Program-made: the position numbers and the translations under genes
Part shown: positions 17,239 to 58,838 of the stretch, piece by piece
Position numbering within the stretch: the stretch's first letter is position 1
Layout of the letters: each line of letters starts with the position of its first letter
Source of the DNA: a virus
Lineage: Duplodnaviria > Caudoviricetes
DNA length: 64,000 bases
Virus record (IMG/VR): IMGVR_UViG_3300025930_000011
Location: 475 to 64,474 of that record
Direction: 5' to 3' (one strand)
The notes under the pieces: model-generated
The model's input: only the letters and a program-made list of their open reading frames with translations
Databases searched by the model: none
Told to the model about the DNA's origin: nothing

Positions 17239-18233
17239 AAACGAAACTACGGATGAAGCTCGAAATCAAAGAGATCTCGGCAGAGGGAACCTTCGAGGGT
17301 CTACTCTCTCCGTACGGTAACGTCGACGGCGGCGGTGACGTAGTGGAGCCTGGCGCCTACACCAAGACCCTGAAAGACCAGGGGAACGTGCGGCCGATGC
17401 TCTGGCAGCACAAGACGGATGTTCCGATCGGTGATCTGACGCTCGACGATCGCCCCGATGGTCTCTGGTGTAAGGGGGCGCTGTTGATGGCGCTGCCCGA
17501 GGCGCAGAAGGCTTACCTGCTGATCAAGGCGCGTATCGTTAAGGGCCTGTCGATCGGCTTCGAGGCGATCCAGGATTCGGTGCAGAACGGTGTCCGCCGG
17601 CTAAAGGAGATCAAGCTCTACGAGGGATCGATCGTCACCTTCCCGATGAACGAATCCGCGTTGATCACGAGCATTAAAGCGCGGAAGGAAACCAAGGGAG
17701 ACTTCAATGAGGAACTGGCCGAGATCCAGTTATCCGACGCACGCTATCAGATGATGGGTGCGCTCTCCTGCGCGCTCTCCTCTGTGATCTGGGCAGACCT
17801 GAACCGCGACGAGAAGATTACCGCGGCCGAAGCGACAATTCAGCAATTCTCTGATGCCTTCATGGGGTTGCTGCCGGCCTACCTCGACATGCTGACTCAG
17901 CAGTACGGCGCGATGGAGACCTGGAACCAGAAGCTCATCGAAACGAAATCAGGCCGCAAGATCAGCGCGGCGAACAAAGAAACTCTCAAGGCAGCCCACG
18001 CGCATATGGATGAAAGCTGTAAGGCCGCGAAGAGCGCCATGGATGCAATTTTTCCACTGTTTGACGACGGAGCCGAGGAGGAGGACGACGAAGAAAAGTC
18101 GAAGCCTCTGGTCATCACTCCACCGCCGGCAGCCGGATCCAAGCCCGAGCCGGTCAGTGATCACTCGGCATTTCTCGCAGCAATCGATAAATTCACGAAG
18201 GAGATTACATGGACCCCCTCGAGCAGAAACTAG
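17235..18233 (+). CDS. prohead protease (HK97 family) with long C-terminal extension
   Basis: FEG..S.YGNVD..GDVV.PGAY, MLWQH, GLSIGF, LYEGSIVTFPMN. Confidence 0.93.
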   Translation: MKTKLRMKLEIKEISAEGTFEGLLSPYGNVDGGGDVVEPGAYTKTLKDQGNVRPMLWQHKTDVPIGDLTLDDRPDGLWCKGALLMALPEAQKAYLLIKARIVKGLSIGFEAIQDSVQNGVRRLKEIKLYEGSIVTFPMNESALITSIKARKETKGDFNEELAEIQLSDARYQMMGALSCALSSVIWADLNRDEKITAAEATIQQFSDAFMGLLPAYLDMLTQQYGAMETWNQKLIETKSGRKISAANKETLKAAHAHMDESCKAAKSAMDAIFPLFDDGAEEEDDEEKSKPLVITPPPAAGSKPEPVSDHSAFLAAIDKFTKEITWTPSSRN

Positions 18234-19417
18234 TCGAACTGACCGGCGTCATTACTACCTTCCGCGACAAAGCGCAGGAAGAGATGAAGACGCTCGGAAC
18301 CACCACCACGGAGACCGCCACCAAATTGGCAGCACTCCAAACGCAAATTGACTCGATCGACGCGAAGATGGCTGACCGCCAGGTTGCCGAAGAGCCGGCG
18401 TCGACCGTCGAGAAGGAGTTTAAGGAGAACGAGCAGATCCAGCGCCTGATGCGGGACAAGTCGGGTCGTGCTGTCATCCATCTCACCGAAAAGACCGCGC
18501 GCCAGATCTTCGCCCAGAAGACCACGATCACCTCCGGAGCGATCGGTTCGGCAACTTCCGGCGTCTTGCAGATTGACCGCACTCCCGGAATTACCGGTGA
18601 GGCTCGGCAGGCTCTCAAGGTTCGCGATGTTCTGAGCGCCCGCCCGACTCAGATGCAGGTGATCGACTTCGTGAAGGTGCTCTCCCCGCTAATCGCAGCC
18701 TCTCCGGTTTCGGAAGGCAGTCAGAAGCTCGAGAACGCTCTGACCTTCACCTCCGCCAGCGAGCGCGTGAAGACGATTGCGACCTGGATTCCGGCGTCGA
18801 AGCAGATCCTCTCCGACATGGGAGAACTGATGGGCTTCATCGAGACCAGCCTGCCCTATTACGTCAATCTGGCGGAAGAACAGCAGCTTCTCTCGGGCGA
18901 TAACACCGGGGAAAACCTGCACGGTTTGATTCCCCAGGCGACGGCCTTCAATACCGGCCTTCTGGTCGCGGCGGCCGGATGGAACAAGATCGATATCATC
19001 GGTCGCGCAATCCAGCAGATCACCGCGGCGAAGGAACTCGATCCAACCTTCATCGTTCTCCATCCGAATGACTGGTGGGGAATCCGCCTGACCAAGGACG
19101 GCTTCGGGCGTTACATCCTGGGAGATCCGCAGCAGCCTTCGAGCGGCGGCACAACCGGAACCGATGTTCGGCCCAATATCTTCGGCCTCACCGTGGTGCA
19201 CACTACCAGCATCACCACCGGCACCTTCCTGATTGGCTCGGGCTCTCCGATCGCCTCCGAGATTCGGGACCGCCTGGAGATGCAGGTCGAGGTATCAACG
19301 GAACATTCCGATTACTTCACACGAAATCTTGTTGCAATACGAGCCGAAAAGAGACTTGCGTTAGTCACTAAGAGGCCAGCTTCGTACGTTACTGGCACAT
19401 TTACAACCAGTCCGTAG
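18209..19417 (+). CDS. major capsid protein (HK97 fold)
   Basis: Coiled-coil delta domain, VKTIATWIPASKQILSD, EEQQLLSGD, HPNDW, FTRNLVAIRAEKRL. Confidence 0.95.
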   Translation: MDPLEQKLVELTGVITTFRDKAQEEMKTLGTTTTETATKLAALQTQIDSIDAKMADRQVAEEPASTVEKEFKENEQIQRLMRDKSGRAVIHLTEKTARQIFAQKTTITSGAIGSATSGVLQIDRTPGITGEARQALKVRDVLSARPTQMQVIDFVKVLSPLIAASPVSEGSQKLENALTFTSASERVKTIATWIPASKQILSDMGELMGFIETSLPYYVNLAEEQQLLSGDNTGENLHGLIPQATAFNTGLLVAAAGWNKIDIIGRAIQQITAAKELDPTFIVLHPNDWWGIRLTKDGFGRYILGDPQQPSSGGTTGTDVRPNIFGLTVVHTTSITTGTFLIGSGSPIASEIRDRLEMQVEVSTEHSDYFTRNLVAIRAEKRLALVTKRPASYVTGTFTTSP

Positions 19418-19478: not shown

Positions 19479-20126
19479 ATGGACAAAAAGGAATATTTCA
19501 AACAGTACAAAGAAGCCAACAAAGAAAAGCTTGCCGAGAAGGCTAAGGAATACTATGCAAAGAACAAGGATAGGATGGCCGAGCAGAAACGAGCCTACTA
19601 CCTTGCCAACCGGAAGCGTTTCATTGCGAGGGCCAAAGAGCGTTACGAGGCTGATCCGCAGGCTGTTATTGATAGAGCTGTCGCGTGGAACAGAGACCAC
19701 CCCGAAGAGCGTAGTGTCATCAATCGAAAATGGGAATCCGCCAATATCGAAAAGCGCAACAAGTACTGTAAGGACCATCGCGAGCGCTACCCCGAATTTC
19801 ACAAGAAGCGTCTTGTTGAATGGCGGAAGAGTAACCCCCTCCTGGTGCGCATGTACTGTGCCAACCGTCGCGGCCGGATCGAAGCGAGCGGAGGAGAAAT
19901 CACTCCGGAGCAAGTTGAGGCGCTCTACGAAAAACAGTCTGGCAAGTGCGCGGCATGCAAAAAGGATCTCAACATGCAGTACCAGTTAGACCACGTAATG
20001 CCGCTGTCGCTTGGCGGAGAACACAAGATCGAAAACGCGCAGATCCTGTGCCGAAAATGCAACCAAATGAAGCATGCCATGCACCCCGACGATTGGGCCG
20101 CTCGCATCGGCAAGCTATTCGTGTAA
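19479..20126 (+). CDS. free-standing HNH (homing) endonuclease
   Basis: Basic helical N-term; Q.GKCAAC...LDHVMPLSLGGEH..EN.QILC.KCNQMKH. Confidence 0.9.
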   Translation: MDKKEYFKQYKEANKEKLAEKAKEYYAKNKDRMAEQKRAYYLANRKRFIARAKERYEADPQAVIDRAVAWNRDHPEERSVINRKWESANIEKRNKYCKDHRERYPEFHKKRLVEWRKSNPLLVRMYCANRRGRIEASGGEITPEQVEALYEKQSGKCAACKKDLNMQYQLDHVMPLSLGGEHKIENAQILCRKCNQMKHAMHPDDWAARIGKLFV

Positions 20127-20179: not shown

Positions 20180-20500
20180 ATGTCCAACGAATCAGTTTTA
20201 CGAACAGGCTTCACGCCTGGAGAAGTAATAGCCGGGCCTGGAGTTGAAAAGACTCATCCCTCTTCCGGTCAGGTATCAACCTCGGGAATCACGGCCTCAC
20301 CGCAAGTCCCCACCGGAACGATCCGCTTCAAGCTCGATGGTGTGGTGAAGACTATCAATGGCCCTGTTACTGGAGCGCAGCTTCACAAGATGGCGGGCTC
20401 CGTCGACGGATACCCGGTAGAACTCAACGGAGTGCCGGATACGAACGATCCTTACCCGCTTCACCAAGATCAGGAACTGGCCACTTCAAAAGCCAAATGA
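20180..20500 (+). CDS. hypothetical protein with ubiquitin-like (multiubiquitin-type) C-terminal segment
   Basis: IRFKLDG......VTGAQLHKMAG. Confidence 0.5.
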   Translation: MSNESVLRTGFTPGEVIAGPGVEKTHPSSGQVSTSGITASPQVPTGTIRFKLDGVVKTINGPVTGAQLHKMAGSVDGYPVELNGVPDTNDPYPLHQDQELATSKAK

Positions 20501-20787
20501 AGCTTGTCTGCATCGCCCAGCAGCTCACCGGGGAGTACGGAACGGTGACTGCTGGGCAGGAGTTCGAGTGCCGCGAGGATATCGCGATGCAGTTGATTCG
20601 TAGTGGCTCAGCGAAGAAGCCCGGGAATCCTCGCGTGGTGTACGAGACCAAGCCCAAAACCTTCGAAACTCCCGAGGTGAGTCCGCGGCAACCGTTTCGT
20701 GACAGCTCTGTGCCTGACAAGAAATCGGCCTCAGTGGCTCCCAAAAGCGATCCGGTGCTTTCAGGCTCAGACGTACCCGCACCTTGA
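20497..20787 (+). CDS. small capsid-region protein
   Basis: GTVTAGQEFEC.EDIAMQLIRSGSA pattern, typical of genes following the major capsid gene. Confidence 0.65.
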   Translation: MKLVCIAQQLTGEYGTVTAGQEFECREDIAMQLIRSGSAKKPGNPRVVYETKPKTFETPEVSPRQPFRDSSVPDKKSASVAPKSDPVLSGSDVPAP

Positions 20788-21301
20788 AATGTTGATCGTA
20801 GCGGACGGTCAAGACGTTCGGGACCTACTGCCGAGTAGTGACGATCGAATCAGGTTGCTGCATGTTGAAGGAAATTCATCCATTGGCGAAAAGCGAAACT
20901 TCGGCTGCCAGCAATCGGCCGGCAGCGTCATTATCCACTTCGATGACGATGACCATTCCGCGGATGGGAGAGTTTCTGACCAGGTTGAGCGCCTCATGGA
21001 AACCGGCAAGGCCGTCACTGGTTATCATCGGCTCCGATTTACTGACGGAACTCACTGGTGGCAGTTCTCCGGCGCGCTCGACCGAGCACTCGGAACCTCC
21101 CTCTGCTACCGGAAAGCCTGGTGGGAGCATAGCCGGTTTCTCTCCCTTAACGTGGGTGAAGACAATATTTTTGCTTTCAACGCCTCTTGTGCCGGCCAGC
21201 TTTCGACCGCTGATGCTCAAGATCTGATGTACGCAACGATTCACCCCGGAAATACAAGCCCCCGAGCCCTAACTGGAAGTGATTGGAGTTTACTGTCATG
21301 A
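20699..21301 (+). CDS. glycosyltransferase family 2 (GT-A); possibly expressed by +1 frameshift from 20497
   Basis: VTALCLTRNR..WLPKAI..F..QTYP, IGEKRNFG, IIHFDDDDH, GED. Confidence 0.88.
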   Translation: MTALCLTRNRPQWLPKAIRCFQAQTYPHLEMLIVADGQDVRDLLPSSDDRIRLLHVEGNSSIGEKRNFGCQQSAGSVIIHFDDDDHSADGRVSDQVERLMETGKAVTGYHRLRFTDGTHWWQFSGALDRALGTSLCYRKAWWEHSRFLSLNVGEDNIFAFNASCAGQLSTADAQDLMYATIHPGNTSPRALTGSDWSLLS

Positions 21302-21662: not shown

Positions 21663-22340
21663 ATGTATCCTACTTTCGGAAACTCGTATCCGTGGTACGA
21701 CACCTACGCCTCCTATGGGACGCTGGGCCTCACGGTCACCTCGCCGCCCCAGGTCTTTACCGAGCCCTTCACGCTCGATCAGGCGATCAGCTTCCTGAGA
21801 CTTCCTCCAACGGCTCCGGCGAATCCTGGCCGTGACGATGATCTCAGGGACATGATCGTGGCGGCAAGAGTGCAGGCGGAGCTGCTACAGAACCGGGACC
21901 TAGTGGTGAAGTCCTTCGATTTATCGCTCGATTACTGGCAGAACACTTCAATCGAACTGCGGCCTCACTTGAGGACGGTTGACCTGGTGCAGCAGAAGGA
22001 CTCGACTGGCGCCGTCATCGCTCTTACCGAAGGAACCCAGTACGTGGTCGATACCAGTAAGCAGCCAGGTACGATCTCGCCGCCCTGGAGTATTGGAGCG
22101 TGGCCGAGTTACACTCCGTGGCCCTCTTCCTCGATTTTGATCCGTTTCACTGCGGGCGTTTCCTCTGACGATGCGTTCTGGTCAGATACCGGGGCCACGG
22201 TCAAGATGGGGATGCGCCGGCTGATCAACGAATGGTTCAGTAACCGGCTGCCTCTCTCGATGGGGAAGAGCGCGATCGAGGGATATCCGGACATCATTAC
22301 TGCTCAGCTTTCGTATGGCGCTATCACGAGGGTTCGGTAG
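21663..22340 (+). CDS. head-tail connector / adaptor (gp6-like)
   Basis: EPFTLDQAISFLRL...DDDL..MIVAARVQAE, IRFTAG, LINEWFSNR. Confidence 0.85.
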   Translation: MYPTFGNSYPWYDTYASYGTLGLTVTSPPQVFTEPFTLDQAISFLRLPPTAPANPGRDDDLRDMIVAARVQAELLQNRDLVVKSFDLSLDYWQNTSIELRPHLRTVDLVQQKDSTGAVIALTEGTQYVVDTSKQPGTISPPWSIGAWPSYTPWPSSSILIRFTAGVSSDDAFWSDTGATVKMGMRRLINEWFSNRLPLSMGKSAIEGYPDIITAQLSYGAITRVR

Positions 22341-22730
22341 GTGGCGCAGAACTACCGCCGGCTGGTGGATATCTCGAGCGGCGAGCCGGTAATCGACTCG
22401 GGCAAGATGCGGCACTCGATCACCATCGAGAGGGACGTGGTTGCAAGTCCTCCTGAGATCAACGAAGGCGGCGTGGTTTCATCGCCTCAAACCATAACCT
22501 CTGCCAATGCGGCCTTCGAGACGTATAACACCGCGGATCAAATCCGGGATGGCCAGATCACCTCGCATATGGAAACGGTGGTTGCCATGTGGTATCAGCC
22601 GGGAATTTTAGGGGGCGACCGGGTGATCATGCCAAGCGGCAATAAGTTGATCGTGGAGGATTTGGATAACGTTCTGCAGATGGATATCGTGCTGGTGTTG
22701 ACGTGTACCGGCCTCGGAACCAATGTCTGA
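22341..22730 (+). CDS. head closure / head-tail adaptor protein
   Basis: IDSGKMRHSITIE...WYQPGI...DRV...L.LTC. Confidence 0.8.
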   Translation: MAQNYRRLVDISSGEPVIDSGKMRHSITIERDVVASPPEINEGGVVSSPQTITSANAAFETYNTADQIRDGQITSHMETVVAMWYQPGILGGDRVIMPSGNKLIVEDLDNVLQMDIVLVLTCTGLGTNV

Positions 22731-23409
22731 TTTGACGAAAAGCAGCAATCTTCCCCTGGTGACCGCCCTCTGCCTCACAAGACAGAGAAAACACTGGCTT
22801 CCTCAAGCAATCGACTGCTTCAACCTGCAAACCTACCCGAATAAAGAACTGCTGGTGTTAGGGGACTCAAGAGAAGATCTCGAAGGATTGACATTTCCTC
22901 CAGGGTCACTGGTGAAATATACCGATGGCGCCCAGCTGGTGGTAGGAGCAAAACGGAATGTCGGCTGCCAGGCGGCGAGAGGCGAAATCATCGCCATCTG
23001 GGACGATGACGACCACTCAGAACCGGGAAGGTTATCGCAGCAGGTGGAAATATTGCAGACGTCTGCAAGGTCCGTTACTGGATATAGAGAAATGAAGTTC
23101 ACCGACGGCCGGGAGTGGTGGAGATACCCGGGACCGGGAAAAGACTTCGTGCTGGCGACTTCCCTCTGCTTCCGGAAAGAGTGGTGGATGAAGCACCGGT
23201 TTGCCGAGATCCAGTGCGGACAGGATGAGCAGTTTGCGGCGGAAGCGGGGCGGTTGGGGCAGCTCGTCGAGTGTCCCGATATGGATCTGATGTATGCGAC
23301 GATTCACCCTGGAAATACTTCAGTGAGGCAGTTGAATGGAGGGCCGTGGTTGAAGATGCCAGCGGGGTTCCAGTGGAAGAAGGAAGCCCGCGAGGAGCAG
23401 GCGGCATGA
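22723..23409 (+). CDS. glycosyltransferase family 2, paralog of 20699..21301
   Basis: PLVTALCLTRQR, VGAKRNVG, IAIWDDDDH, MYATIHPGNTS shared with the first GT2. Confidence 0.9.
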   Translation: MSDLTKSSNLPLVTALCLTRQRKHWLPQAIDCFNLQTYPNKELLVLGDSREDLEGLTFPPGSLVKYTDGAQLVVGAKRNVGCQAARGEIIAIWDDDDHSEPGRLSQQVEILQTSARSVTGYREMKFTDGREWWRYPGPGKDFVLATSLCFRKEWWMKHRFAEIQCGQDEQFAAEAGRLGQLVECPDMDLMYATIHPGNTSVRQLNGGPWLKMPAGFQWKKEAREEQAA

Positions 23410-24131
23410 CCCCTCAAGGAACAGTGCGGATGGGACTCTCTGTCATCATCCCGAGCAAGACGGCCTCGAATCTGGTGCCCTGTATGGACGCGCTGAGGAA
23501 GCAGCAGCCGGGCATTAATATCTTCGTTGCGGACGATGGTGTGGACTGGAAAGCTATCATGCTGTGGGTTGAGGCTGATCCGGGATTCACGGTGGGTTGG
23601 TGCTCAAGGCCATTTATCTACGCTAAAAACTGCAACTTTGGAATCTCTAAAACCTGGCAAGATGACATCGTTCTCTTGAACGATGACGCGATCCTTGAGA
23701 CCCCCGGAGGCTTCACCGCGATGCAGCAATTCTGCTATGAGCATCCCGAGTACGGCCTCCTGTCAGCGCGGGTCAAAGGCAACGCGCATCACATTCACGC
23801 CTACAAGGAAGGTCTGACCGGTATCTCCGAAGGCGGCTTGGATGTCCCCTTCGTCTGTGTGTATATTCCGCGAAAAGTACTGGACAAAGTAGGGCCTCTC
23901 GATGAGCGCTTCACTGGCTCAATCGATGGAGAAATGGTGTACGCAGGAGAAGACACAGACTACTGTATGAGAATCCGGCATGCAGGGTACAAGCTCGGAG
24001 TGTTTAACGAATGCGTGGTCGATCATGGGACTCTGCCGAGTACTTTCCGGGGTCTCAATGGGAGCCTGCCGATCAATGCCACGATGAAGCGCTTCTATGA
24101 GATCCACGGCTTCCCCATGTGGAGCAGATAA
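23406..24131 (+). CDS. glycosyltransferase family 2
   Basis: LSVIIPS, DIVLLNDD, VGPLDERF...EDTDYC.R. Confidence 0.88.
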   Translation: MTPQGTVRMGLSVIIPSKTASNLVPCMDALRKQQPGINIFVADDGVDWKAIMLWVEADPGFTVGWCSRPFIYAKNCNFGISKTWQDDIVLLNDDAILETPGGFTAMQQFCYEHPEYGLLSARVKGNAHHIHAYKEGLTGISEGGLDVPFVCVYIPRKVLDKVGPLDERFTGSIDGEMVYAGEDTDYCMRIRHAGYKLGVFNECVVDHGTLPSTFRGLNGSLPINATMKRFYEIHGFPMWSR

Positions 24132-24134
24132 CCG

Positions 24135-24623
24135 ATGCTTAAGCTCAACCTGGGCGCGAATGATGACCGGAAATCGGGCTTCGTCTCGGTGGATATCTGC
24201 GAACCGGCAGATGTGGTCCATGACCTGAACTACCACTGGCCCTGGGAAAACTCGACCGTGGATGAAATCTATGCCCACGATGTTTTTGAGCACCTAGGAC
24301 CGAGCAAAATCTGGCCGATGAATGAGGCCTGGAGGGTGTTGAAGCCCGGCGGCATCCTCGATTTGGCAGTACCGTGCGTGATGCTGGCCGATGGAAGAGT
24401 GAACCCGGGAGCCTTCGCAGACCCGACGCATCGAACCTTCTGGACCCTGGATGATCAGTACTACTTCATGGAGCCATGGAACCATCCGGGAGGGGAAAGA
24501 GGAAGATTGGGACCGGCGTATGGGATTCAGGCGCTGTTTCGGGGTGAGTGGCGGATGGTTGAGTACGGAGCATCGAATGAGCGGAGGAGTAAGATTCTGG
24601 CTCACCTTACGGCGGTGAAGTAG
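24135..24623 (+). CDS. class I SAM-dependent methyltransferase
   Basis: KLNLGA, DVFEHL, EAWRVLKPGG, DPTH. Confidence 0.88.
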   Translation: MLKLNLGANDDRKSGFVSVDICEPADVVHDLNYHWPWENSTVDEIYAHDVFEHLGPSKIWPMNEAWRVLKPGGILDLAVPCVMLADGRVNPGAFADPTHRTFWTLDDQYYFMEPWNHPGGERGRLGPAYGIQALFRGEWRMVEYGASNERRSKILAHLTAVK

Positions 24624-24680
24624 ATGGGCGGAAAAGGCGCGGTTGTTGATTTGGTGGAGGGTTCACCTCGCCGCACCTGG

Positions 24681-24706
24681 GTCTGGCTCCCTTTGGTTGG
24701 TCGGGA
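24681..24706 (-). repeat. dispersed 26-31 bp repeat, copy 3
   Basis: Reverse complement TCCCGACCAACCAAAGGGAGCCAGAC. Confidence 0.85.
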
Positions 24707-24881
24707 CTTGGTTTTGATGTGATGACCATCCGCATATTTCTGCTGCTGAGCGCGATTATGGCCTTCTGTTGCCGGGATGGGGTGCGCTGAATTACATGTC
24801 TGAATATCAATTTGGCGTCGTGTCCGGTGTGCTGATGGCGGGTTGCGTCATCCTCTTGGTTATTCGCCTCCGGCGCAATTA

Positions 24882-25505
24882 ATGTTTCACCTCACTCATA
24901 AAGAGCTATTGGAGCTGGCCTTCTGGCTGCGTTGCGACATGCAGGCTGAGGGTGTGCAGCTATTCCGGTATCTCGATGTCCTGAAGATTCCTTCGCCGGA
25001 GCAGAGTATCGGGGAATTTGTTAGCGCGTCCCTGCCGCGGCAAATCCTCGAGATCGGCACTGGGCCTCACTGGGGACTATTGCCCTTCATCGAAGCCGAT
25101 CTGAAATTCGGAGTCGATCCCCTTTATCCGGCATATGAAGCAGTCGGGATCCTGGAAGAACGAAACGGCATCCGGCGAGTGGATGAACCGTTCGAACACT
25201 GGGACACGGATCAGCAATTTGACCTCATCCTAACGACCAATGCACTGGATCACGGAGAGATGGGATTCTACCTGCTGCCGAAGATCTGGAGGATGCTGAA
25301 GCCCGGCGGCCGGTTCTACCTGCACGTGCATCTGAGGCCAGAGGAACTGAAAAACCTCCTTCACGATCACCCTTTGACAGAAGAGCAGCTCGACAAGCAT
25401 TTGGGATATACCGATCTGATTCAGGAGCGGAGAGAGTTGCTCGATAAGGATCTCGATGGGTTTGAGAGTAAGACACTGATCGGGGTGTGGAGGAAGCCGG
25501 AGTGA
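24882..25505 (+). CDS. class I SAM-dependent methyltransferase
   Basis: ILEIGTGP, GVDPL, FDLI...NALDH, RMLKPGG. Confidence 0.88.
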   Translation: MFHLTHKELLELAFWLRCDMQAEGVQLFRYLDVLKIPSPEQSIGEFVSASLPRQILEIGTGPHWGLLPFIEADLKFGVDPLYPAYEAVGILEERNGIRRVDEPFEHWDTDQQFDLILTTNALDHGEMGFYLLPKIWRMLKPGGRFYLHVHLRPEELKNLLHDHPLTEEQLDKHLGYTDLIQERRELLDKDLDGFESKTLIGVWRKPE

Positions 25506-26092
25506 CCATCGGCAAGATTCAGCAACTGAGCACGCAGGCCCCCGCCCTCGTTGCTCCGCCGCGTCCCCCGGAAATTCGCGCCATCACCCCCTTCGAGCGC
25601 TGGGACCATCACACCATCCGTGGGCTTGAGCGTAATTCCATCCGGGAATTCGTCACGAGGCACAAAGATCTGTTGACAGGCCGCGTGCTCGACTTCGGCG
25701 CAGGGAAAGAAGGGACCTGTTTAAAGCCTCAACCCTACCGTGACTTAGTTTCAGGAGAGTACGAGCCCTGGGAACCCGATGACAAGTGGCCGGTTCCAGA
25801 ATATGATGCGATCCTTTGCACGCAGGTGCTGCAATACGTTCCAGATCCGGCGCTTGTCATCCACTGGTTTCATGGATGGCTGAAAGAGGGCGGGTATCTG
25901 GTGTTGACAGTGCCGACTTGCTGGGACGAAGTGGAAGCCTCTGACTTGTGGAGGTGGACGAAGGCCGGGATCGAGAAGCTGCTGACTGATCAGAAGTTCG
26001 AAGTGCTTCAAGTCGAGCGGAGGGCGGAGATCGAGCTGGGAGGCTTTAAGTTTCCTCTGGGGTATGGAGTGGTTGCGAGGAGGAGGGGATAG
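25502..26092 (+). CDS. class I SAM-dependent methyltransferase
   Basis: VLDFGAG..PYR, YDAILCTQVLQYVPDP, LKEGG.LVLTVP, DLWRWT..G. Confidence 0.88.
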   Translation: MTIGKIQQLSTQAPALVAPPRPPEIRAITPFERWDHHTIRGLERNSIREFVTRHKDLLTGRVLDFGAGKEGTCLKPQPYRDLVSGEYEPWEPDDKWPVPEYDAILCTQVLQYVPDPALVIHWFHGWLKEGGYLVLTVPTCWDEVEASDLWRWTKAGIEKLLTDQKFEVLQVERRAEIELGGFKFPLGYGVVARRRG

Positions 26093-58762: not shown

Positions 58763-58838
58763 GTCCCTTTAGCTCAGCGTATAGAGTGCCCCGGTCCTAA
58801 CGGGGAGGTCGCAGGTTAGAATCCTGCAGGGGACACCA
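58763..58838 (+). tRNA. tRNA-Arg (anticodon CCT)
   Basis: Acceptor GTCCCTT/AGGGGAC, D-stem GCTC/GAGT, anticodon stem CCCCG/CGGGG with loop GTCCTAA, T-stem GCAGG/CCTGC, ACCA end. Confidence 0.9.

Follow-up and report, generated by a model that had tools for sequence, protein, structure and literature searches.

A conserved UUU_CGU junction in a soil phage suggests that a glycosyltransferase is made by +1 ribosomal frameshifting as a fusion to a small domain predicted to bind the capsid

How does a phage express a glycosyltransferase gene that begins inside the gene before it, in another reading frame, and without a properly spaced ribosome-binding site? This question arises from a window of 64,000 nucleotides (positions 475 to 64,474 of the IMG/VR record IMGVR_UViG_3300025930_000011, Caudoviricetes), in which ORF A runs into a GT2 glycosyltransferase (GT) gene lying in the +1 frame, with an overlap of 89 nt. 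A sequence-only reading of this window had proposed that a Phe-tRNA slips from TTT to TTC, so that a minority fusion product tethers the transferase to a head-associated protein and targets glycosylation to the capsid. In this study, the locus was compared with related viral, bacterial and metagenomic loci. We found that the described arrangement is correct in all its coordinates, and that the frameshift interpretation is supported, more strongly by comparative data than by the arguments first offered for it. The features are collected in the table.

Table. Coordinates of the features at the locus, in positions of the window, with the observations on which each rests.
Position	Strand	Feature	Observations
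18209..19417	+	HK97-type major capsid protein gene; predicted binding partner of the N-domain	Pfam PF05065 9.5e-32; phrog_10 7.5e-52; a homologue lies upstream of the junction in 60 of 63 related loci
20497..20697	+	N-domain coding part of ORF A (67 codons, ending in Phe TTT), shared by the short product and the fusion	Profile of 5 homologues finds 189 cluster representatives at E<=1e-3; AF2 fold of four strands plus a helix, pLDDT 78 alone and 91-96 within the fusion model
20497..20787	+	ORF A, zero-frame product (ATG, 96 aa): N-domain plus a 29-residue tail read across the start of the transferase gene	Most relatives have a 45-47 codon tail; the TGA at 20785 reads CGA (T>C at 20785) in contigs from X3 and X7; relative L002 has a longer 113-aa ORF
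20665..20698	+	Conserved 5' sequence element (GAA ACT CCC GAG GTG AGT CCG CGG CAA CCG TTT C)	SD-like GAGGTGA at 20674-20680; GAG used in 42/42, CGG in 50/50 and TTT in 58/58
20678..20680	+	TGA that closes the transferase frame 6 codons before its first Val codon	The same 6-codon opening with no start codon occurs in many relatives
20692..20700	+	Proposed +1 shift cassette CCG_TTT_CGT: E-site Pro, P-site Phe, zero-frame A-site Arg	CCG TTT CGT GAC occupies 20692-20703
20699..21301	+	GT2 (GT-A fold) glycosyltransferase coding sequence in the +1 frame (GTG, 200 aa); C-terminal part of the 267-aa fusion	PF00535 5.7e-16, 59.3 bits against a cut-off of 23.3; DDDD motif at residues 82-85
22723..23409	+	Paralogous GT2 gene with its own ATG and a 12-residue leader before the same Val	48% identity to the first GT; begins MSDLTKSSNLPLVTALCLTRQR

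With reference to the arrangement itself, no ATG, GTG or TTG lies between the TGA that closes the transferase frame and the GTG at 20699, and the 3' end of GAGGTG (20674-20679) lies 19 nt before that GTG. Reading CCGT as one step gives ...EVSPRQPFVTALCLTRNR..., a 267-aa product (P0274). Two of the arguments of the sequence-only reading are weak, however, as the missing ribosome-binding site says little when only about half of 14 inspected gene starts in this phage have an SD-like motif, and the N-terminal strand said to be restored by comparison with the paralogue amounts to only Met versus Val at one position. A single window of a metagenome-derived viral contig cannot by itself exclude that the frame offset is an assembly or sequencing indel, which had been named in advance as a condition that would overturn the reading, or that the gene is decaying. 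We observed that contigs from three runs cover 20500-20900 with 0 indels, of which X1 may be the source of the window, whereas X3 and X7 come from other studies and differ by 8 and 29 substitutions. Since the same offset also recurs in dozens of diverged loci, far beyond chance, with both reading frames intact and conserved, this explanation is already contradicted and is considered very improbable.

Conservation of the overlap and of the TTT-C site in related phages had likewise been set beforehand as a test of the frameshift, and its outcome was favourable. Related loci were collected with an alignment of the GT, and in 69 of the 80 rows examined the N-domain lies in the -1 frame relative to the GT, leaving 63 unique viral loci after the removal of 6 duplicates. 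TTTC is found at the junction in 59 and TTTT in 2 of these 63 loci, and the pattern also holds in 6 Acidobacteriota genomes and in 17 of 24 metagenome loci, with TTTC or TTTT at the junction in 6 of 6 and 17 of 17, respectively. The slippery P-site codon followed by a pyrimidine, which allows tRNA-Phe to re-pair in the +1 frame, is present in this family of at least 86 loci. The Phe codon at the site is TTT in 58 of 58 loci, whereas Phe elsewhere in these GT genes is TTC 262 times and TTT 114 times (30% TTT). With regard to the zero-frame A-site codon, CGT accounts for 70 of 1104 Arg codons (6%) in the related GT genes, but this leaves undecided whether it is slowly decoded, because the codon is also forced by the overlapping Val codon, rarity was measured in phage genes only, and host tRNA levels are not known. 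One carrier, L095 among the related loci, is a prophage in a cultured strain, Acidobacteriaceae bacterium KBS 96.

The strongest rival explanation is that these are two ordinary overlapping genes, with the transferase starting on its own at GTG 20699, perhaps coupled to translation of ORF A, and with no functional fusion being made in this phage. In its favour, GTG is over-represented at this position (41 of 63, 65%, against 27% of Val codons elsewhere in the GT genes), which could mean that some lineages, the window included, also start the transferase independently. Most gene callers predicted proteins of ~198-202 aa from this codon, and about half of the genes in this phage lack an SD anyway. 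Several related loci (L024, L025, L034, L039 and L045) also have an ATG 19-27 codons upstream in the GT frame, and gene callers used such starts (predicted proteins P0089 and P0033). Despite this, the first Val codon of the GT cannot serve as a start in 20 of 63 viral loci (GTC 16, GTA 2, ATC 1, GCG 1), 3 of 6 genome loci and 8 of 17 metagenome loci, yet the GT stays intact and conserved. Of the 20 viral loci, 18 have no ATG, GTG or TTG upstream in frame, and in 7 the next start lies 67-129 codons downstream, as was checked by eye in the related loci L012 and L095. The start-capable state changed at least 13 times on a tree of 62 GTs, which is the behaviour of a Val codon rather than of a conserved initiator. 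By contrast, stand-alone relatives without the N-domain, in further support of the frameshift, carry their own ATG or GTG 1-6 codons before a GTC, GTA or GTT Val. The downstream gene thus lacks an independent route of expression in many conserved relatives, though this feature is not decisive for the window itself, which has GTG, and independent initiation at 20699, a further refuting condition named at the outset, cannot be excluded in this particular phage. Overall, we regard the two-gene explanation as unlikely.

Natural in-frame fusions of the two parts also exist. The protein P0081, of 265 aa, occurs on 4 contigs and has the junction ...SPRRPF-VTCVCLTRNR, with an N part that matches ORF A residues 1-67 at E 4e-27, while P0231 has ...EHPF-VSALCL, so that both carry the predicted PF-V junction; P0257 is also a fusion, joined as ...EPGL-VTCLC. 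These came from the GT search and the profile search, as a homology search for longer proteins related to ORF A found none. A metagenome scan with P0081 did not recover its own contig, so the DNA of the in-frame junction was not seen, and a tblastn search of P0081 against 50,697 GenBank phage records gave no match. The fusions are only indirect evidence for a trans-frame protein, since no protein, ribosome-profiling or reporter data exist, no RNA data set was listed among the sequencing runs, and expression was not examined. Current gene callers miss the fusion and call a truncated or wrongly started transferase, the window's own gene having been called as 170 aa.

Synonymous sites just 5' of the site are strongly constrained, with an excess codon homozygosity of +0.31 over the last 12 codons, against +0.04 for the earlier codons of the N-domain (from its start to 20 codons before the shift site) and +0.03 to +0.09 in the GT gene, and this constraint is present whether the Val codon is GTG or GTC. 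The SD-like GAGGTGA within this element lies 14 nt before UUU, and its role is unexplained. No 3' RNA structure is conserved: RNAalifold on 54 sequences from -60 to +110 gave -2.3 kcal/mol with 0 covarying pairs, a sliding 60-nt MFE scan over the loci retained after filtering showed no local excess of folding energy near the site, and Rfam gave no match at E<=1 in 20400-21000. The window's own 92 nt downstream fold to -29.1 kcal/mol with z -1.8, and 11 of 200 shuffles folded as well. There is also no case for selection on the zero-frame tail, as synonymous constraint in the overlap is +0.09, only marginally above the +0.03 and +0.08 in the rest of the GT, and an open run of 45 codons has probability 0.24 at the background stop density.

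It is further possible that recoding is real but proceeds by another route, such as transcriptional slippage, a tRNA that reads four bases, or initiation at a non-standard codon just upstream of the Val, and no experiment distinguishes these. However, three T's are too short for polymerase slippage, and the only tRNA gene found in the phage is tRNA-Arg(CCT), not a Phe tRNA, leaving no candidate four-base decoder. In the common 6-codon opening, the GT-frame codons (GCG CGC GGC AAC CGT TTC type) hold no near-cognate start. These routes are considered improbable, and re-pairing of tRNA-Phe on UUU_C is the simplest reading and has precedent.

This precedent comes from several systems. UUU_Y is a known +1-prone site in bacteria (PMC5009743), with the Yersinia YopN-TyeA fusion and ICE FseA as examples, but those are chromosomal or ICE regulators, whereas the present case is a phage structural-module gene pair with its own conserved 5' element. 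The mass-spectrometry-proven influenza A PA-X site, UCC_UUU_CGU, has the same UUU_CGU core, with P-site tRNA-Phe moving from UUU to UUC, a seldom-used CGU in the zero-frame A site that is also fixed by a Val codon in the +1 frame, a Phe-Val junction and no requirement for a 3' pseudoknot (PMC3498833); the cassette has also been proposed in amalgaviruses, fijiviruses and chronic bee paralysis virus. Here, the setting is a bacterial (Acidobacteriota) phage translated on 70S ribosomes, the E-site codon is CCG or CCC rather than UCC, about 30 nt upstream are constrained, the proposed product is an enzyme fused to a putative capsid-binding domain, and the efficiency was not measured. E. coli prfB (RF2), mentioned in PMC3498833, is a bacterial +1 P-site slip with a slow A site and an SD-like sequence upstream; in prfB, the stimulatory spacing is 3 nt, whereas at the present site the A-site codon is a sense codon and the spacing is longer, as given above. 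In Listeria phage PSA, as is proposed here, a phage morphogenetic gene yields two products that share an N-terminus in a set ratio (PMC5009743), though PSA shifts on CCC, next to a pseudoknot or a stop codon, and adds structural extensions, while here the added part is a complete GT-A enzyme.

The enzyme part belongs to glycosyltransferase family 2 by profile match and by its GT-A Rossmann-like fold with an acidic DxD-type motif. The fusion P0274 also scored 58.2 bits against PF00535, and the AF2 model (pLDDT 93.8) matched SpsA, WrtF, TarS and heparosan synthase in Foldseek at E 1e-11 to 1e-9. In its acidic motif, D82, D84 and D85 are invariant and D83 nearly so. Sugar transfer was not assayed, and neither the donor nor the acceptor is known. 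In mycobacteriophages, glycosyltransferase genes near capsid genes sit inside the structural module and are thought to glycosylate capsid proteins (PMC11256854), but no frameshift or fusion to a capsid-binding domain is reported there, and our literature searches found no description of the present system.

The sequence-only reading called the upstream protein head-associated, which was a guess and now has model-level support only. A complex model of the N-domain with the major capsid protein scored 0.61 against a best control of 0.10, a mark that was reached by 58 of 80 solved complexes and 2 of 110 mismatched pairs. The three runs, made with our own alignments, gave 0.61, 0.00 and 0.63, so that two of three passed, with agreement in contacts of at least 0% and partner pLDDT of at least 51; the outcome supports binding without deciding it. 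ORF A starts less than 150 nt after the capsid gene in 30 of 60 loci. Lambda gpFI, a packaging chaperone that bridges capsid and terminase (PMC13595911), and the DUF7210 small phage proteins are also encoded by small genes placed directly after the major capsid gene, but gpFI is not fused to an enzyme. Neither sequence nor fold settles a relationship with them: DUF7210 matches 13 of 35 members weakly (best E 0.0041, below the gathering score) and gives no hit to the window's own copy, phrog_2616 matches at only E 1.6e-4, and no sequence comparison with gpFI was made. The N-domain model superposes on the gpFI C-domain (2lsm, Z 4.5, rmsd 1.2 over 42 residues), but bL9 and GINS domains score as well or better (Z 5.2-5.3), and the BFVD hits, several of them named DUF7210, have E of 4e-3 or weaker.

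Taken together, we consider that ORF A and the glycosyltransferase form one recoded gene, with a probability of roughly 0.85. Sequence comparison establishes the site, the frame relation and the inability of many relatives to start the transferase on their own, whereas the mechanism is drawn by analogy. In this view, ribosomes start at ATG 20497 and translate the N-domain; with peptidyl-tRNA-Phe on UUU (20695-20697) and the rare Arg codon CGU waiting in the A site, a fraction of them re-pair the tRNA with the overlapping UUC, continue in the +1 frame with GUG, and make the N-domain-GT2 fusion with the junction ...SPRQPF-VTALCLTR.... Ribosomes that do not shift would make the short protein, which is the N-domain plus an unconstrained tail. 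The element in the roughly 30 nt before the site is under selection and probably tunes the shift, though how it acts is unknown. In the lineages without a start codon, the fusion is probably not a minor by-product beside an independently started transferase, as first proposed, but the only way in which the enzyme can be made. Binding of the N-domain to the HK97-type major capsid protein is inferred from a model; on that reading, the shift sets a fixed low ratio of enzyme-bearing to plain N-domain protein, and places the transferase on or near assembling capsids in a phage whose head-tail module also carries two more GT2 genes and three methyltransferases.

Well-supported +1 programmed frameshifts in bacteria and their phages are few, comprising prfB, some IS elements, Listeria phage PSA and a handful of fusions. 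This study adds a large family of at least 86 diverged loci in which comparative data alone nearly force the conclusion, because the downstream enzyme often has no start codon. It indicates that the UUU_CGU cassette, proven in a vertebrate virus, is also selected on bacterial ribosomes, and offers a natural series of variants (E-site codon, 5' element, in-frame revertants) for working out how such simple sites are tuned. A more far-reaching possibility, which is only tentative, is that a large, uncultured family of Acidobacteriota phages uses the same minimal cassette as PA-X, helped by a so-far unknown kind of 5' sequence stimulator, to make a fixed small fraction of a capsid-binding protein carrying a glycosyltransferase, which would thereby be delivered to assembling capsids and would glycosylate the virion in situ or travel with it. 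For phage biology, our data suggest a way of coupling a glycan-modifying enzyme to capsid assembly in a fixed ratio.

In this study, the junction between ORF A and the GT2 glycosyltransferase was examined in a 64,000-base window of a 64,474-bp IMG/VR virus record that is rated as complete by CheckV. The junction lies within an HK97-type head module, and the features of this module and of the junction itself are listed in the table below. The sequence-only reading had described a glycosyltransferase (GT) gene overlapping a small upstream gene by 89 nt in the +1 frame, with the GT frame closed shortly before a GTG that lacks a properly spaced ribosome-binding site, and all of these features were found where it had placed them, so that the observation is confirmed. 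The overlap is 89 nt, the transferase is in the +1 frame, the closing TGA lies 6 codons before the GTG at 20699, and the motif GAGGTG ends 19 nt before that GTG.

Coordinates of the features in and around the ORF A-glycosyltransferase junction, and of a tRNA gene elsewhere in the window, in the order in which they lie in the window
Feature	Position	Family match or remark
Portal gene		PF04860
S78 prohead protease gene
Major capsid protein gene	18209-19417	PF05065
HNH endonuclease gene	19479-20126	PF14279/PF01844
106-aa gene		unknown function
ORF A	20497-20787
TGA closing the transferase frame	20678-20680
CCG TTT CGT	20692-20700
GT2 glycosyltransferase gene	20699-21301
Zero-frame stop (TGA) of ORF A	20785-20787	polymorphic
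Small hydrophobic protein gene
225-aa gene	21663-22340	no family match
Head-completion gene		PF05521
Paralogous GT2 gene	22723-23409
Third GT2 gene	23271-24131
Three methyltransferase genes	24135-26092
tRNA-Arg gene	58763-58838	anticodon CCT

An assembly indel at the junction had been put forward beforehand as an alternative that sequence coverage should exclude, and we compared the window with contigs assembled from three public rhizosphere runs (X1, X3 and X7), which cover 20500-20900 without any insertion or deletion. X1 may be the source of the window, whereas X3 and X7 come from other studies and differ by 8 and 29 substitutions, respectively. Both carry T>C at 20785, which removes the early zero-frame stop of the window, and this matches the 92%-identical relative L002, whose ORF A is 113 aa; most relatives stop 45-47 codons after the shift site. 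The HNH endonuclease gene, which sits between the capsid gene and the 106-aa gene in the window, appears to be absent from the 92%-identical relative. In the related locus L011, the capsid gene ends at 1880 and, by coordinate offset from L002, the 106-aa gene starts about 100 nt later. The HNH gene is probably a mobile insertion.

Conservation of the overlap and of the TTT-C site in related phages had likewise been named as a test of the frameshift reading, and it was examined with a GT alignment (A4), which retrieved 80 IMG/VR loci out of 218 confirmed matches. The N-domain (the part of ORF A preceding the shift site) and the GT were located in each with HMMs. The rows examined were 78 of those 80 loci, plus the locus L008 and the window, while L076 and L086 were dropped because the GT match lacked its N-terminus. 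In 69 of these 80 rows the N-domain lies in the -1 frame relative to the GT, and in nearly all of them its last codon, Phe, ends exactly two bases before the first Val codon of the GT. After the removal of 6 duplicates, 63 unique junctions were left, of which 59 have TTTC and 2 have TTTT at the junction, 1 (L042) has TTTC displaced by one extra codon, and 1 (L069) has neither. The Phe codon is TTT in 58 of 58 aligned loci, whereas elsewhere in the same GT genes Phe is encoded by TTC 262 times and by TTT 114 times. TTT followed by a pyrimidine is what a +1 slip of tRNA-Phe needs, and TTC would not do.

The competing possibility, that the transferase starts independently at its first Val codon, was assessed from the identity of this codon across the 63 loci, which is GTG in 43, GTC in 16, GTA in 2, ATC in 1 and GCG in 1. 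Of the 43 GTG loci, 41 have TTT-Y exactly at the junction. Among the 20 loci without a start-capable codon, 18 have no ATG, GTG or TTG in the GT frame back to the preceding stop, and in 7 the next canonical start lies 67-129 codons downstream, beyond or close to the DDDD motif. Two cases were inspected by eye: in the locus L012 the GT frame reads ...CARGRCFVTCLCLTRNRR..., with its first Met at codon 110, and in L095, a prophage in the cultured strain Acidobacteriaceae bacterium KBS 96, the codon is GCG. On a FastTree of 62 GT proteins, the start-capable state changed at least 13 times. The same pattern holds outside IMG/VR, as 6 Acidobacteriota genome loci have GTG (3), GTC (1), GCG (1) and GTA (1), and 17 of 24 metagenome loci, all with TTTC, have GTG (9), GTC (6) and ATC (2); of the other 7 metagenome loci, 4 have a truncated GT and 3 lack the N-domain. 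By contrast, GT relatives that lack the N-domain carry their own ATG or GTG 1-6 codons upstream of a GTC, GTA or GTT Val, such as L085 (ATG GTC ACC TGC) and L100-L108 (ATG or GTG, CTC, GTC), and the Val is therefore a residue of the first beta-strand, not an initiator. In some relatives (L024, L025, L034, L039 and L045; proteins P0089, P0033, P0093, P0048 and P0094), however, the GT frame stays open far upstream and holds an ATG 19-27 codons before the Val, and gene callers therefore predict GTs with an N-terminal extension read from the +1 frame of ORF A (MPPHPAWNTKPKL...RFVT), although it is unknown whether these starts are used. Moreover, the public gene call for the window's own transferase (P0001) is 170 aa and covers 85% of the 200-aa query, so it is shorter than the ORF from GTG 20699, which shows how annotation pipelines mishandle this junction.

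Natural in-frame fusions were also found. Among the GT homologues, P0081 (265 aa, seen on 4 contigs) reads ...ETPEVSPRRPF/VTCVCLTRNR... (the slash marking the join), and its first 67 residues align with ORF A at E 4e-27. A profile search with the N-domain found 189 cluster representatives at E<=1e-3, most of which are 108-125 aa, that is, the N-domain plus a tail of about 47 residues, and it disclosed two more fusions, P0231 (269 aa, ...EHPF/VSALCLTRNR) and P0257 (262 aa). P0119 (293 aa) may be a fourth, but its N-terminal similarity is weak (E 0.27). The same search also matched P0152, a 1976-aa protein with 15 matched stretches to the N-domain profile, whose Pfam hits are weak and unrelated (DUF4399, Sigma70_r1_2), and which may be a repeat protein built from the same small module, or a low-complexity artefact. 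The PF/V junction in P0081 and P0231 is exactly what a slip on TTT_C predicts, and for the window, reading one four-base step gives a 267-aa product, ...SPRQPF/VTALCLTRNR....

Codon choice in the last 12 codons before the shift is strongly constrained, with an excess codon homozygosity of +0.31, compared with +0.04 for the N-domain codons from its start to 20 codons before the shift, +0.09 for the GT codons in the overlap, +0.03 for GT codons 48-100, and +0.08 for GT codons from 100 to the end. Individual codons are nearly fixed, including Glu GAG in 42/42, Arg CGG in 50/50, Ala GCT in 36, and Ser AGC in 24 of 29, and the consensus is GCT CCC GAG GTG AGC SCG CGG CAA CCS TTT C. This element contains GAGGTGA, which is complementary to the 16S 3' end, but it is kept in both GTG-type and GTC-type loci, so it is not simply a ribosome-binding site for the GT. 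It lies 14 nt before the TTT, further than the spacing that stimulates the +1 shift in prfB, and neither its mode of action nor the efficiency of the shift was established here. No conserved 3' structure was found at the junction, and Rfam gave no match. The zero-frame A-site codon CGT makes up 6% of the Arg codons in these genes (70 of 1104), though it is also dictated by the overlapping Val codon; the only tRNA gene found in the window by ARAGORN, tRNA-Arg with anticodon CCT, does not read CGU, and it may be a phage tRNA or mark an attachment site. The zero-frame tail of ORF A shows no clear added constraint, and its open length is unremarkable, and we therefore regard it as run-off rather than a functional domain.

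With reference to recoding that is already known, the review by Atkins et al. notes that an ICE regulator uses a UUU shift site. Firth et al. (PMC3498833) proved by mass spectrometry that influenza A PA-X is made by a +1 shift within UCC_UUU_CGU, with a junction peptide, ...DSF/VSPR, that has the same Phe/Val join, and argued that tRNA-Phe pairs better with UUC than with UUU, and that the seldom-used CGU may help. The phage cassette CCS_UUU_CGU shares the UUU_CGU core with PA-X, but differs from it in the E-site codon, in being translated on bacterial ribosomes, and in having a 5' conserved element. We found no description of this phage system in the literature searched, and a search of 50,697 GenBank phage records gave no match at all.

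The GT is a GT-A fold GT2 enzyme. The AF2 model of the natural fusion P0081 has a pLDDT of 93.8 and a pTM of 0.87, and Foldseek matches SpsA, WrtF, TarS and heparosan synthase at E 1e-11 to 1e-9. The N-domain is a unit of about 50 residues, four strands and a helix, followed by a conserved Pro-rich linker (YETKVIxPEAPEVSxRxPF), and its similarities are all weak. In sequence, DUF7210 was matched in 13 of 35 members (best E 0.0041), together with phrog_2616; among viral structural models, many small uncharacterised phage proteins were matched; and among solved chains, the bL9 N-domain (Z 5.3), the GINS B-domain (Z 5.2) and the lambda gpFI C-domain (Z 4.5) were matched, with middling scores that could reflect a common small fold. 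gpFI bridges capsid and terminase (PMC13595911). ORF A follows a capsid gene in 60 of 63 loci, the other 3 having too little upstream sequence to tell, and it starts within 150 nt of the end of the capsid gene in 30 of the 60. A complex prediction of the N-domain with capsid protein residues 105-402 supports binding, with a score of 0.61 against a best control of 0.10, a mark that was reached by 58 of 80 solved complexes and 2 of 110 mismatched pairs. The three runs, for which our own alignments were used, gave 0.61, 0.00 and 0.63, with at least 0% contact agreement and a partner pLDDT of at least 51, and this is model support, not a measurement. The predicted interface involves capsid residues 225-246, 335-341 and 395-397, and N-domain residues 7-19 and 29-38.

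Taken as a whole, the interpretation proposed by the sequence-only reading, a +1 frameshift that joins the small upstream protein to the glycosyltransferase, is well supported for the family and, by homology, for this phage, with a probability of about 0.85. The frame offset and its recurrence at the TTT-Y junction are read directly from the sequences compared, while the use of the shift in this phage is inferred from its relatives, and the capsid link from a structural model only; some independent initiation at the window's GTG is not excluded by these data, and whether the fusion really acts at the capsid was not assayed. The closest genomic carriers (genome contigs L091-L096) are all Acidobacteriota, comprising Acidobacteriia, Candidatus Sulfopaludibacter, Bryobacteraceae, Pyrinomonadaceae and the cultured Acidobacteriaceae bacterium KBS 96, and the runs that hold the window are rhizosphere metagenomes, which points to Acidobacteriota as the likely hosts. 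In addition to the transferase at the junction, a second GT2 paralogue (48% identity), a third GT2 and three methyltransferase-domain genes lie inside the head-tail module, and this looks like a glycan synthesis and modification cluster for the virion.
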